A DNA stretch of 64,000 bases from Candidatus Lindowbacteria bacterium RIFCSPLOWO2_12_FULL_62_27 (GTDB taxonomy: Bacteria; Lindowbacteria; 2-12-FULL-62-27). The notes beneath the pieces were generated by a model. It did no database searches. It saw only the letters and a list, made by a program, of their open reading frames with translations, and had not been told where the DNA came from. The position numbers were made by a program, and so were the translations under genes. The stretch spans positions 124,001-188,000 of the forward strand of contig MFPR01000001.1 in the NCBI GenBank assembly GCA_001784175.1, in the 5' to 3' direction. Every line of letters begins with the position of its first letter. The first letter of the stretch is position 1. This document shows positions 22,552-34,390 of the stretch, in pieces.

Positions 22552-23376
22552 ATAACGCGCTCCTCCTTACACAACCGCAATTTTAAAATCCAAACCGGCG
22601 TCAGGGCCGTCTATGAGTATTCCGCCCTGCCCTCAACAAACGATCGCGCCAAACTTCTCGCAGTTCAGGGCGCGCCGGACCGGTCCCTCGTCATCACCTC
22701 CCGGCAAACCGCAGGTCGGGGCAGGGGCGGCAACCGCTGGTGGTCCGGCCAAGGATCGCTGACCTTCTCAGTCATTTTCAGGGTGCCGCGCACGTCGATC
22801 GCACTGCAGAATCTCGCTCCGATTTCCCTCGTCGCCGGCCTGTCCGTTGTCCGGACCGTCCGGCGGATTCATCCGGCATGCCCGGTCGCCCTCAAGTGGC
22901 CCAACGACATTTATTCGGGGCCGAAAAAGCTCGGCGGCATCCTGACGGAGAGCAGCGTACGCGCCGGCCGGCCCGCCAACCTGATCGTGGGGGTGGGGCT
23001 GAACGTCAACACAAGGTTCGAGCGTGCGCCGGCGGCCATCCGATCCACTGCAACGTCTCTTTGCCAAGGCACGTCGCCAAGCCATCGCATGGACGAAGCC
23101 CGGGTTCTGGCGTCTGTCTTGAAGGAGCTGTGCAAACTGGTCCGCCAATTCCTCAGAAGCGGATTTCAGCCCCTTTGCGACGAATGGACTTCCTTCGACG
23201 CCGTCCCATTCGGAAGCAGAATCAGCGTCGACGACGGCAATATTAATATGGAAGGACGCTACGAAGGCATTCTTCCGACAGGTGCACTAAAATTGCGTGG
23301 AGAATCGGGCCTCCACACGATCCTCTCCGGCACGCTCCGTCCCGTGGGCGTACTTCCCATAACGCATAAAGTGTAA
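22552..23376 (+). CDS. birA: biotin-protein ligase; non-canonical start; 3' end overlaps the dif/attL site
   Basis: frame open from 22546; PSTN, QTAGRGR..NRW, KWPND, KKLGGIL and GVGLNV motifs, the first two upstream of the ORF-track start at 22783. Confidence 0.88.
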   Translation: MTRSSLHNRNFKIQTGVRAVYEYSALPSTNDRAKLLAVQGAPDRSLVITSRQTAGRGRGGNRWWSGQGSLTFSVIFRVPRTSIALQNLAPISLVAGLSVVRTVRRIHPACPVALKWPNDIYSGPKKLGGILTESSVRAGRPANLIVGVGLNVNTRFERAPAAIRSTATSLCQGTSPSHRMDEARVLASVLKELCKLVRQFLRSGFQPLCDEWTSFDAVPFGSRISVDDGNINMEGRYEGILPTGALKLRGESGLHTILSGTLRPVGVLPITHKV

Positions 23377-24769
23377 ACTTGGTAGATGTATCTGATTGTA
23401 TACTGCTTTTTTCGTTACCTCCTCCCACTGTTGGGATAAGATTTTTTGGTCTGTACCGTTTGAAAACATCCATAACATAACGTTCGTCGGCCATGAGGGA
23501 CCAGGTGGAGTAATGGAGGCGGCCGGTCGGCATTTCCATGACGGGGATCCATTTCTGGGATACGGCCCAATCCAGGCGCTCCTCCGCCTCCGAAAGGTGC
23601 GTGGGCCGGCCGACGCGGCACATGTCGACGAGGTACTCCACGATCATGCGTTCACGCCAGGCGGTGGCGCAGCGATAGACGGCGCGTTCGGCAATCATCT
23701 GCCAGCGCCGGCAGGCGCCGAGTTCCCGGCGGTTGCATTCGAGTTCATGGCGGGCCTCCAGGCAGTCGCCGGCGTTGGCCTGGGCCCATTCGAGGAGGCG
23801 GGTCTTTGATTCGGCCTGGATGTCGTCGACCGACTTCGTCGGGATCCGTTCGAGACGCCGGCGCCAGTCGGCGAGGATGTCGGCTTTCGTTCTGGACGGA
23901 TCCTTGTCCCGGCGCGTGTTCATTTCGGCGGCCTTCGCGTTCGTAGTTGTGAGGAGGGCCTTCCGGATCTGCGCCTGGCGCGTCGAAAACTCCTCCTGGG
24001 CCTCGTGGGATACGAGGTCGGACCGCCACTGGCCATGGGGCATATAGGAGCGCTTGAGGTCGAAGCGGTGGAGGCGGGCGCGCAGTTCGTGCATGTAGAT
24101 TTGTGTCGCCAGATAGGGAAAGTCCCGGAAGTAAAATCGGGCGCCGTGGATGCCCGAAAAATGCGGCGCGCCATTTTTCTCCCACTGCGTGATGTTGAAC
24201 ACCAGCACATGGGAGGACAGGTGCGGATCATACTCGCGTGAGAAGCCGTCACGCAGGATCGAGTAGACCATGTTATCAGTCGATAGATCGACTTGAGTCT
24301 GGCCGCCCTTTCCCATCCTAGCACGAGAGTATCGTATCTCTATTTCCCGCATGGTCGCCAGGACCGCGTCATCATGCGCTGCCGTGATGTCGGCACGGGT
24401 CATATTGCGCGGTAGCTCAAAGCCGTCCATGAGCGCCAGCATGGAGATTGATTTGGGCGCGGAAAAGGCCCAGGAAAAGCAAAGTACCTTGTGTTTTTGC
24501 ACGATCTTTTTGCCGGCGGCGTCACAGCCTTTGAGCAGGTTCACCATGTCGTCCCGGCCAATGGGCTGCCCTTCCTCAAAGCCGAGGTAGGGCGCGGTTT
24601 TGCCGTAGACGCGGACTCCTACGGAGTCATCAGCCTGGTCAAAGTAGTAGTTTGTACTCTTGTCGTAGAAATAATCGGCGATGCCGACCGGGTCCTGTTT
24701 CATCGGGACGCCCCTAAACACGTCCCACCCCAACTTCGAATCGCGCGTTAGCTCCTTTCGGATCGACAA
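23243..24769 (-). CDS. MOBF (TrwC/TraA-like) relaxase: N-terminal half of the att-split relaxase-helicase gene
   Basis: DYF...NYY tyrosines, FSAPKSIS, SREYDPHLSSHVLVFN, FSTRQAQI, TRRDK; reads through attL into 35 host-derived codons. Confidence 0.88.
   Translation of the reverse strand: MSIRKELTRDSKLGWDVFRGVPMKQDPVGIADYFYDKSTNYYFDQADDSVGVRVYGKTAPYLGFEEGQPIGRDDMVNLLKGCDAAGKKIVQKHKVLCFSWAFSAPKSISMLALMDGFELPRNMTRADITAAHDDAVLATMREIEIRYSRARMGKGGQTQVDLSTDNMVYSILRDGFSREYDPHLSSHVLVFNITQWEKNGAPHFSGIHGARFYFRDFPYLATQIYMHELRARLHRFDLKRSYMPHGQWRSDLVSHEAQEEFSTRQAQIRKALLTTTNAKAAEMNTRRDKDPSRTKADILADWRRRLERIPTKSVDDIQAESKTRLLEWAQANAGDCLEARHELECNRRELGACRRWQMIAERAVYRCATAWRERMIVEYLVDMCRVGRPTHLSEAEERLDWAVSQKWIPVMEMPTGRLHYSTWSLMADERYVMDVFKRYRPKNLIPTVGGGNEKSSIQSDTSTKFTLYALWEVRPRDGACRRGSCGGPILHAILVHLSEECLRSVLPY
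23352..23379 (+). other. attL: hybrid dif site with degenerate XerD arm
   Basis: ACTTCCCATAA-CGCATA-AAGTGTAAACT; differs from the attR copy only at TTA->AAG. Confidence 0.9.
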
Positions 24770-24979
24770 AAAAATCCAACCCGCCGGGCGGCGCCGCGCG
24801 CGGGCAGACCGGGGCCGAAGGGGTCAACCCCGGCGAAACGTTATCGGAATGCGATTGGATGCGCTCTGAATCCCCTTCTCTCATTACGCGGAGTGTCTAC
24901 CAGTGATTAAAACAAAATGTCAATAGCCGGCGTGAAAATTGTTTCCATGTGCGGCGCCGTCGAATCCGCGGGACAGCGC

Positions 24980-25008
24980 TTGATTTTCCGGTATACCGCC
25001 GGTATACT
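24980..25008 (+). promoter_or_regulatory. promoter and probable operator of the vapBC pair
   Basis: TTGATT-17-TATACT overlapping two CCGGTATAC repeats and the palindrome CGGTATACCG. Confidence 0.55.
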
Positions 25009-25030
25009 GTCCCTCGAGGAGGTGATCGAC

Positions 25031-32974: not shown

Positions 32975-32990
32975 GACGTTTGACCTCCTC

Positions 32991-34361
32991 TCATGCGATG
33001 TTTGAAACCATTGATCTATGGTTCGGAAAGGGTTTGCAACCCTTCTCAAATGGTTCTTCAAACGATTCGAGCAACTCGGAATGAACGGTTTGTCGAATCG
33101 TTTCGCGGCGCGCCAGGCACTCCTCCAGCGTCACGTCCGGCCAGCCCCAGGAAAGGGTCGTTTCGGCGTGCTGTCCGAGCCTGGCGAGAAAGAGCAGGTT
33201 TTCCCAATCGTCGGTGAAGATGAGACAGAAGTCCCGGGCGCGCGTGATCTGAACGTACTGGGCCCGCATGGTCTCAAGGTCCTTGCGGGTCGTGTCGGCG
33301 TCGATCAGGACCGTTCCGACGGTCCGGCCCTGGGCCTTCCAGGTTGTGACGGCGTAGCCATGGTCGAACCACGGATAAAGCGCCGGATTGATTTCGACGG
33401 TCCGGCCGCCGTCGAGCCGGACGGTGAAACGGTCCCGGCCGATATCGGCCACCGTTCCGGTGAAGCCGTTTCGGAGATTCAGGCGGCCGTAGAGGTTCTT
33501 CGTGCAGACGATGCGGTCGCCCGGCAAAATCTCCACGTCGAATTCGGAGCGCTTGCGCCTCGCGCGAAACTTCACGGCCGCGCGGCGCAGACGCAGGGGG
33601 AAAAGCTTTTCGCGGATCCGGCGGTTGATCTCCATGCACGAAAGGGCCGAAGGAGAAATGACAAGCATCCCGGGCCGAAAGAGGCGCGCGATTTCGGCCC
33701 ACCGTTCCTCCGGCGGCCCGATCTCGCGGACCCAGCCGAGGTCCCGAAGCGCGCCCAAAGACGCCGGCATGTTTCGCGCGCGGGCCAGGTCGCAGGCGTG
33801 ACGCAGACCTGAATGACGCTGTCTGAAATTTTCGTGCAGTTCCACAAGGACGCCGGCGCCGCGCGCGAAGTCGCAAAGGTTCGTGAAGGGATCGCCGGCC
33901 GTCAGGGGCGTCAGCTGCGAGGGATCGCCGATCAACAGGAGATTCATGCCGAGCCGTTCGCATACCCGGGTCAGGCGCGCCATGTCGGTTATGCCGATCA
34001 TCGAGCTTTCATCGACGACGATGAGCATGGAATCGGCGGACCGGCGGCGCTTGATGCCCTCGTAATAGGCGAGGAAAGCGGCGAGCGTCACGGCGGGGAT
34101 GCGGCTTTCCTCGTGCAGGTTGGCCGCCGCGGCGCCGGTGGGCGCCACGCCGCGGATCTTCCATCCCCGCGGTAGAAGTATCTGACGCAACACGTCGACC
34201 AGATACGTCTTTCCGGAGCCGGCGTCTCCACGCCAGCACATGAAAGTTTCGTTCTGCGCCGTCAGCGATTGAACGGTATAGATAAGGGCTTTTTTCTGGT
34301 CCCCTGTAAGATTATGTAGACTTTCCTCAAGCTCCAATCCCGCAAGGAGCTTGCGGAACGC
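32991..34361 (-). CDS. SF1B (RecD/TraA-like) helicase: C-terminal half of the att-split relaxase-helicase gene
   Basis: GDAGSGKT, VAPTGAAA, VVDESSM, IGDPSQL, NFRQ, HGYAVTTWKAQG, TRAR; frame open back to attR. Confidence 0.9.
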   Translation of the reverse strand, partial: AFRKLLAGLELEESLHNLTGDQKKALIYTVQSLTAQNETFMCWRGDAGSGKTYLVDVLRQILLPRGWKIRGVAPTGAAAANLHEESRIPAVTLAAFLAYYEGIKRRRSADSMLIVVDESSMIGITDMARLTRVCERLGMNLLLIGDPSQLTPLTAGDPFTNLCDFARGAGVLVELHENFRQRHSGLRHACDLARARNMPASLGALRDLGWVREIGPPEERWAEIARLFRPGMLVISPSALSCMEINRRIREKLFPLRLRRAAVKFRARRKRSEFDVEILPGDRIVCTKNLYGRLNLRNGFTGTVADIGRDRFTVRLDGGRTVEINPALYPWFDHGYAVTTWKAQGRTVGTVLIDADTTRKDLETMRAQYVQITRARDFCLIFTDDWENLLFLARLGQHAETTLSWGWPDVTLEECLARRETIRQTVHSELLESFEEPFEKGCKPFPNHRSMVSNIA

Positions 34362-34362
34362 T

Positions 34363-34390
34363 ACTTCCCATAACGCATATTATGTAAACT
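34363..34390 (+). other. dif: chromosomal dif site (attR), XerC/XerD recombination site
   Basis: ACTTCCCATAA-CGCATA-TTATGTAAACT; 11-6-11 layout with the canonical XerD arm of B. subtilis-type dif. Confidence 0.9.

Follow-up and report, generated by a model that had tools for sequence, protein, structure and literature searches.

Structure of the insertion

The DNA analysed here (the window, 64,000 nucleotides) covers positions 124001–188000 of contig C1 (MFPR01000001.1; 292,560 bp, or 292.6 kb) in the assembly GCA_001784175.1, referred to below as G000, of Candidatus Lindowbacteria bacterium RIFCSPLOWO2_12_FULL_62_27, a member of an uncultured groundwater lineage. Its subject is a PM2-like element at window positions 23351–34390, bounded by copies of a dif-like site. 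Its two end genes are the halves of one relaxase-helicase gene, a point missed by the original prediction made from the letters of the window. The element is placed between a host biotin-protein-ligase gene resembling birA on the left (22783–23376, plus strand; Pfam BPL_LplA_LipB, E 6e-8), whose last codons enter the left repeat, and a host oligopeptide/dipeptide-type ABC ATPase gene on the right (34409–35419, minus strand; ABC_tran E 2e-35, oligo_HPY E 4e-19). These two genes converge across dif.

The dif copies that had been predicted at the two ends were recovered. In the left attachment site (attL, 23351–23379, plus strand), the XerC-type arm and the spacer are those of the host, and a degenerate, phage-derived XerD-type arm comes after them. 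The right attachment site (attR, 34362–34390, plus strand) contains a complete dif-like 28-mer at 34363–34390, the sole full copy in the assembly, in agreement with the proposal that an intact dif is left at this end. The stretch common to attL and attR is 18 nt long (a T, the 11-nt XerC-type arm and the 6-nt spacer). Their XerD-type arms differ at 3 of 11 positions, and the 28-mers are identical at 25 of 28. The distance between the repeats, from start to start, is 11,011 bp.

Both flanks were compared with the genomes of three members of the host family (G001, G002 and G003). In the alignments with G001 and G002, the homologues of the two flanks are contiguous and converge on one uninterrupted 28-mer. 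Because these genomes carry the empty site between the same two genes, the stretch 23351–34390 is an insertion. G003 also has a dif-like site, located behind a different gene (locus L010, contig C123 of G003, 1500–1530); the birA–dif–ABC synteny is found in two of the three relatives.

The integrated form, with both junctions bridged by contigs, was found in all four metagenome runs (four studies of groundwater and soil, possibly the source samples). An assembly artefact was ruled out: each of two runs yielded a 22.8-kb contig and two more yielded junction-spanning contigs, with no differences at either junction. Other joints that were listed, with sides of 20–41 nt and located at GC-rich repeats or ABC genes, were read as coming from other organisms. 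The observation of a dif-bounded, PM2-like insertion is confirmed.

The target site and the host Xer enzymes

The 28-mer has an 11 + 6 + 11 architecture with a CATAA/TTATG dyad. A search with a 25-nt pattern of the site returned exactly one site with one mismatch per genome in all three family genomes, with the arms kept and a different spacer in each. This holds for one mismatch; at three mismatches the matches were at chance level, and a reversed control pattern also matched twice in G003. The full dyad core has only two occurrences in the host assembly. That on contig C30 has arms unlike those of dif and was the one further place returned by the search for other dif copies that the original prediction had proposed. 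The 12-mer named in that prediction is located at 34379–34390 and has a copy with one mismatch at 34311–34322, for a chance expectation of 0.01 matches. The target is a unique and conserved site between convergent genes.

The proposed search for host xerC and xerD was also successful, both products scoring above the NCBIfam cut-offs. XerC (gene at C1:192513–193394) scored 336.2 bits against an equivalog cut-off of 335.15, and XerD (contig C28) scored 335.1 bits against 329.6. Named relatives of XerC are at most about 50% identical to it and are drawn from many phyla. The xerC gene shares its contig with the dif-like site, at a distance of only 34 kb. Fourteen matches to the tyrosine recombinase family PF00589 were found in the genome, 12 of them besides XerC and XerD, and one match to the serine recombinase family PF00239. 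As predicted, the element itself encodes no recognisable integrase: the Pfam scan gave no PF00589 or PF00239 match within it. An element with no recombinase of its own, dif-like flanks of which one restores the host dif, and a host with both XerC and XerD corresponds to what is called an IMEX (an integrative mobile element that exploits Xer). These sequence features support the reading that the element would have entered dif by means of the host Xer enzymes.

A replication gene split between the two ends

The relaxase half of the phage replication gene (rep) is located at 23243–24769 on the minus strand (Pfam TrwC, E 7e-41). It extends through attL into the host sequence, so that its last part is a foreign tail. 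It matches the relaxase structures of F TraI and of TrwC (E 1e-13 to 1e-11), and is the single TrwC match in the whole genome. The helicase half, of superfamily 1 (SF1; AAA_30/UvrD_C_2), is located at the other end, also on the minus strand: the gene covers 32991–34337 and the frame is open from attR inward over 32991–34361 (AAA_30, E 2e-38). On the minus strand, the relaxase frame traverses the shared 18-mer at attL and ends with ...STKFTLYALWEV. The same frame at attR starts with YALWEV and continues with AFRKLLAGLELEESLHNL..., free of stops, into the helicase open reading frame (ORF). In this one frame, the six residues encoded at attL and at attR are identical. Owing to this continuity, recombination at the 18-mer would yield one ORF of 473 + 456 = 929 codons, or of 907 codons from the start of the public gene call (P0124). 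Relaxase and SF1 helicase are separate ORFs in the prophage; a single frame joins them only at the predicted excision junction.

Relatives of the relaxase half were collected by an exhaustive phmmer search. The 12 best non-self relatives are all proteins of 863–1471 amino acids (aa) that match it at their N-terminus (E 9e-56 to 5e-33), and the six that were scanned all have TrwC, AAA_30 and UvrD_C_2 together. In P0125 (863 aa), the relaxase half aligns with residues 17–391 and the helicase half with residues 446–820 (38% identity each, collinear; E 4e-69 for the helicase half). P0003 is likewise collinear with both halves. The linker between the alignable blocks has about 84 residues here versus 55 in P0125, i.e. 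about 29 more. In view of this longer stretch, the attachment site and the hairpin next to it sit in an enlarged linker. The hairpin is an inverted repeat with an 8 + 4 bp stem (34323–34358), 4 nt from attR and within the rep linker. Its predicted DNA fold has an energy of −12.1 kcal/mol (z −3.95), equalled by none of 200 shuffled sequences, and it may be the nick site or origin hairpin of Rep.

The tyrosines of the relaxase are kept, Y33/Y35 and Y41/Y42 aligning with the tyrosine pairs of TraI. At the positions of the metal-binding His triad of F TraI, the element has Asp, Ser and His. Asp at the first position is common to the three relatives that were aligned, the third His is kept, and an extra His that is invariant in the subfamily is also kept.

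Virion genes and other features

The major capsid protein (29673–30491, minus strand) is of the double-jelly-roll (DJR) PM2 P2 type, as had been predicted (Pfam P2_C E 1e-35, P2_N E 8e-26; phrog_8536). A profile built from it and 35 relatives matched PM2 P2 in the PDB (2vvf/2w0c, E 3e-28), to which the protein is 23% identical over its full length. Much closer to this capsid family than PM2 P2 is a 'double jelly roll capsid protein' deposited recently (9t9v_A, E 8e-48). Upstream of the capsid gene are a gene for a P9-like packaging ATPase (30888–31502, minus strand; phrog_2666, E 6e-17; 25% identical to PM2 P9, E 3e-7) and a promoter-like site with the sigma-70 consensus TTGACA-16-TATAAT (30668–30695, minus strand). 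All 12 hexamer positions of the latter match, in a genome with about 62% G + C, and its location is that of the late promoter in PM2 (layout of PM2 taken from PMC1950889).

The P2-type capsid and the P9-like ATPase place the element among the PM2-like viruses; no P1-like spike or P12-like Rep was found. These two are the variable 'nonself' modules of PM2-like viruses according to PMC1950889. The circular double-stranded DNA genomes of these viruses have about 10 kb, to be compared with the 11,011 bp of the element, for which no circular joint was found in contigs. The PM2-like gene order that had been proposed holds for the ATPase, the small ORF and the capsid; the lytic enzyme was misplaced, being a lytic transglycosylase encoded before the lectin gene and not after it (27114–27722, minus strand; Pfam SLT E 4e-15; phrog_342, phrog_669). 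The protein that had been called a spike has only a Laminin_G_3 lectin domain (E 6e-15) and no similarity to PM2 P1; it is a possible receptor-binding or vertex protein (26138–26914, minus strand; the ORF as listed reaches 27172).

Between these genes and the capsid gene is a gene for a conserved 182-aa protein of the structural module (27738–28286, minus strand), 35% identical (E 1e-35) to a syntenic 182-aa ORF at L013, the locus of the nearest capsid relative. It is followed by small ORFs of 88, 188, 71 and 95 aa (28288–29662, minus strand), several of them with hydrophobic C-termini, which are candidate membrane or virion proteins. The labels P7, P3, P4, P8 and P10 that had been given to the small ORFs found no support in family matches (Pfam, PHROGs). 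The 182-aa and 88-aa ORFs (27738–28554, minus strand) have similar starts (GDFIxxK...V.VEI..D) and may encode vertex proteins. AlphaFold, run on single sequences, gave uninformative models for the 182-aa protein and the lectin-domain protein (mean predicted local distance difference test scores 33.0 and 32.5, respectively).

The sole plus-strand gene pair of the element is located between rep and the structural genes (24917–25670). It consists of overlapping ORFs for a ribbon-helix-helix antitoxin-like protein (RHH_1 E 0.002, below the Pfam cut-off) and a PIN toxin (E 5e-8), a VapBC-like pair that may be accessory or stabilising cargo. A candidate early or regulatory region (31503–32655, minus strand) contains a zinc-finger ORF (zf-C2H2_jaz, weak, E 0.004) and Pro/Ala-rich ORFs. 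The zinc-finger ORF was tried as a counterpart of PM2 P14 and rejected (no similarity, E 0.36). A tandem repeat of 3.3 copies of a 45-bp GC-rich unit (32298–32445, 90% matches) encodes the Pro/Ala-rich repeats of a minus-strand ORF of this region. Differences of 3 nt were observed between runs: one has an insertion, and another has a deletion in a similar GC-rich stretch (31541–31543). No coupling protein or type IV secretion system (T4SS) gene was found among the 20 ORFs of the element that were scanned.

Relatives and origin of the modules

The capsid protein was found in none of 200 sampled related genomes. In viral contigs, the profile search for the capsid gave six loci and the single-protein search none; a profile search for Rep in these contigs gave no match. 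The closest capsid relatives (53–57% identical) for which names or titles are available come from metagenome-assembled genomes of Alpha- and Gammaproteobacteria and from marine data. The host here being a groundwater lineage, this hints that the virus group has moved across phyla. A full dif-like core was present at 4 of 18 loci with capsid relatives. In the IMG/VR locus L029, with a distant P2-type capsid (26% identical), dif-like sites are located at 835–863 and 13008–13036, 12.2 kb apart. They have the XerD arm and spacer in common and differ in the XerC arm, the reverse of what is found in the window.

At L013, the initiator is a classical REP_ORF2-G2P protein and the lytic enzyme a phage lysozyme. 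A TrwC-type rep here versus REP_ORF2-G2P there fits the exchangeable replication modules of PM2-like elements described in PMC1950889, in which four rep types are distinguished and the word relaxase does not occur. The relatives of Rep are encoded at 12 metagenome loci. The three that were annotated are plasmid-like, with ParA, a restriction-modification pair and a TrwB-type coupling protein, the last of these adjoining the Rep relative at L035.

Comparison with known elements

The original prediction took Xer-exploiting elements to be filamentous phages, their satellites and islands. This view has been overtaken: descriptions of dif-type DJR phages go back to 2023 (PMC9966536, PMC10589892, PMC11630473, PMC12715192). 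Integration by XerCD at dif has been proposed for the integrase-less DJR phages NO16 (PMC9966536) and Jorvik (PMC10589892), and was seen for some tailless Vibrio prophages (PMC11630473). In PMC12715192, dif-type DJR phages, PM2 included, are treated as IMEXs with a full or one-armed 17-bp phage attachment site (attP) that is always located between p16 and p15. As integrase-less DJR prophages at dif were described in 2023–2025, the novelty claimed for the element was overstated; the class is already known and no new kind is added to it.

The Vibrio dif-type DJR prophages, including the NO16-like 'Asemoviridae' (PMC12715192, PMC9966536, PMC11630473), resemble the element in being integrase-less and PM2-like, with dif-like flanks and a size of about 10–11 kb. 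They also resemble it in that one junction restores dif and in their one-armed attP (arm + spacer). They differ in that their attP is intergenic and their terminal genes are p16 (RstR-like) and p15 (XafT-like), whereas the terminal genes of the element are the rep halves; no p15- or p16-like gene was recognised in it with Pfam or PHROGs. Their host is a gammaproteobacterium, that of the element an uncultured groundwater bacterium. Jorvik of Rhodobacter capsulatus (PMC10589892) is likewise a member of the Vinavirales with no integrase, with attP and host attachment site (attB) resembling dif and with XerCD as the proposed recombinase. However, its attB is within the cbbII operon, at a position that varies among hosts, and the word relaxase is absent from PMC10589892.

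PM2 itself (AF155037) shares with the element the order of ATPase, small gene, late promoter, P2-type capsid and small membrane genes, as well as an initiator of the HUH type, the nick site of PM2 being inside its own gene. It differs in having a P12-type Rep instead of a TrwC-helicase, in its P1 spike, to which nothing similar was found, and in a capsid with only the 23% identity given above. Among other IMEXs, the gonococcal genetic island (GGI) and the TLC-phi type (PMC5357621, PMC9226527) have an attP whose XerC arm and spacer match dif and whose XerD arm is divergent; in the GGI, the XerC arm and spacer are identical to dif (PMC5357621). They are, however, an island and a filamentous-type satellite, respectively, and TLC-phi brings the activator XafT, of which no counterpart was recognised in the element.

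Mob relaxases are set aside in PMC6668415. The closest parallels of Rep are the MobF proteins TrwC of R388 and TraI of F, with a TrwC relaxase and an SF1 helicase on one polypeptide (here in the inferred excised form) and N-terminal tyrosines that are kept. The element differs from the MobF systems in being devoid of coupling protein and T4SS genes, in having the protein in the place of a virus initiator and in the replacement of one canonical His ligand. Archaeal virus integrases of the SSV1 type have attP inside int, so that integration splits the gene and excision restores it. There, the split gene is that of the recombinase itself, whereas in the element it is a replication gene and the recombinase would be that of the host. 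Two points appear to be new: a plasmid-type TrwC relaxase-helicase as rep, and an attP in its inter-domain linker. The literature searches gave no report of a DJR phage whose rep is of the relaxase type, nor of an attP inside rep in an IMEX; supplements, such as the attP tables of PMC12715192, may hold cases.

Proposed mechanism and alternatives

The explanation preferred here, with a probability of about 0.7, is that of a temperate PM2-like IMEX inserted into the host dif via XerC/XerD, with attP inside a TrwC-type rep that is intact only in the excised circle. A complete-looking temperate genome of the Vinavirales type would have entered the single dif-like site of its host, the recombination being most likely catalysed by host XerC and XerD. 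Its attP would be an exact copy of the host site in the XerC arm and 6-bp spacer, and would agree with it at 8 of 11 positions of the XerD arm. With an attP that is a near copy of the host site, integration is proposed to yield a degenerate attL and a functional dif at attR. This attP would be located inside the coding sequence of rep, in the linker between the relaxase and helicase domains, and the prophage would consequently have the two halves at opposite ends, relaxase on the left and helicase on the right. An intact rep of about 929 codons (907 from the start chosen by the gene caller) would exist in the excised circle alone. Rep, rebuilt after excision, would then nick an origin, for which the hairpin next to attP is a possible place, and would drive rolling-circle replication as PM2 P12 does. 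In the integrated state, autonomous replication would be physically off.

A stronger version of this explanation can be put forward only tentatively. According to it, attP was placed in the linker of the replicase to serve as a physical switch for lysogeny, Xer disassembling and reassembling the initiator and thereby replacing or backing up a repressor; in addition, a MobF relaxase-helicase of conjugative plasmids came to serve a membrane-containing DJR virus as its rolling-circle initiator, in a lineage remote from the proteobacterial hosts in which such viruses are known.

The alternative that survives best, itself judged unlikely, is a dead-end capture: a fortuitous dif-like stretch in the rep linker of a plasmid-like or lytic phage would have been recombined once by XerCD, leaving a decaying, non-inducible prophage with a broken rep. 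Several results weigh against the preferred explanation, and most of the following also speak for such a capture. The Ser at the second His position of the relaxase, and a Tyr in place of a neighbouring His, are peculiar to the element among the three aligned relatives; with this canonical metal ligand replaced, the nuclease may be impaired. The empty site that had been predicted was contiguous in G001 and G002, but neither an empty-site joint nor an excised circle was found in the contigs of the four runs, contigs being prone to drop rare variants. No near-identical full-length Rep was present in the protein catalogues among proteins of 829–2365 aa. No XafT/P15- or repressor-like gene, and hence no lysogeny regulator, was recognised in the element by Pfam or PHROGs. 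The element is a singleton: TrwC was found in none of 17 records or genomes with capsid relatives (L025 not covered), and no dif-like core was found at the 12 loci of Rep relatives bar one AT-rich chance match. This match, the ATAA-N6-TTATG core of L031/L032, is inside the relaxase domain and was rejected as a dif. Finally, no GC-skew switch was observed at the site, the skew being weakly negative on both sides (seven loci sampled on contig C1). A terminus position of the site is therefore not supported; either there is little replication skew in this lineage or the site is away from the terminus.

Against a fortuitous capture, chance falls far short of accounting for the match of 25 of 28 positions to the host's own dif, lineage-specific spacer included. 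Every large ORF is open, and the two parts of rep have stayed in frame. The linker, longer than that of P0125 by some 29 residues, looks as if it housed an acquired site, and dif-type DJR phages normally have a one-armed attP (PMC12715192).

It is much less probable that the HUH relaxase of the phage, and not Xer, integrated the element, the 18-bp repeat being the nick region of Rep and the host site a pseudo-origin. TrwC is able to integrate into 17-bp (14 + 3) nic-like targets (PMC3264647), a strong hairpin is located 4 nt from the repeat, and the nick site of PM2 is also inside its rep gene. However, the target is the conserved dif-like site of the host, and the likeness of attP to it extends beyond the 18 nt into the XerD arm (8 of 11 positions), which a relaxase reaction does not need. 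Integration by TrwC would also leave unexplained the agreement of attP with the host dif at 25 of 28 positions. Moreover, the hairpin arm is missing from the host flank and the relaxase is devoid of one canonical metal ligand. The action in trans of another tyrosine recombinase, from elsewhere in the host or from a helper element, is the least credible reading: 12 further PF00589 matches could provide it, but the architecture of the site is that of a canonical dif, no second such site is present, and no recombinase gene is adjacent, xerC being 34 kb off and the others on other contigs.

Biological significance

With the preferred explanation of a Xer-dependent temperate phage, the host range of the dif-type DJR class is extended to an uncultured groundwater lineage, and its replication module, a plasmid relaxase-helicase, adds another example of modules exchanged by plasmids and viruses. 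Elements of this kind would escape prophage finders in which an integrase or p15/p16 termini are expected. With a dif mimic inside an essential gene, the dimer-resolution machinery of the host would gate phage replication. If rep is truly rebuilt on excision, the element would provide a natural example of a recombinase site tolerated within a protein linker, and a simple, repressor-independent coupling of excision to replication.

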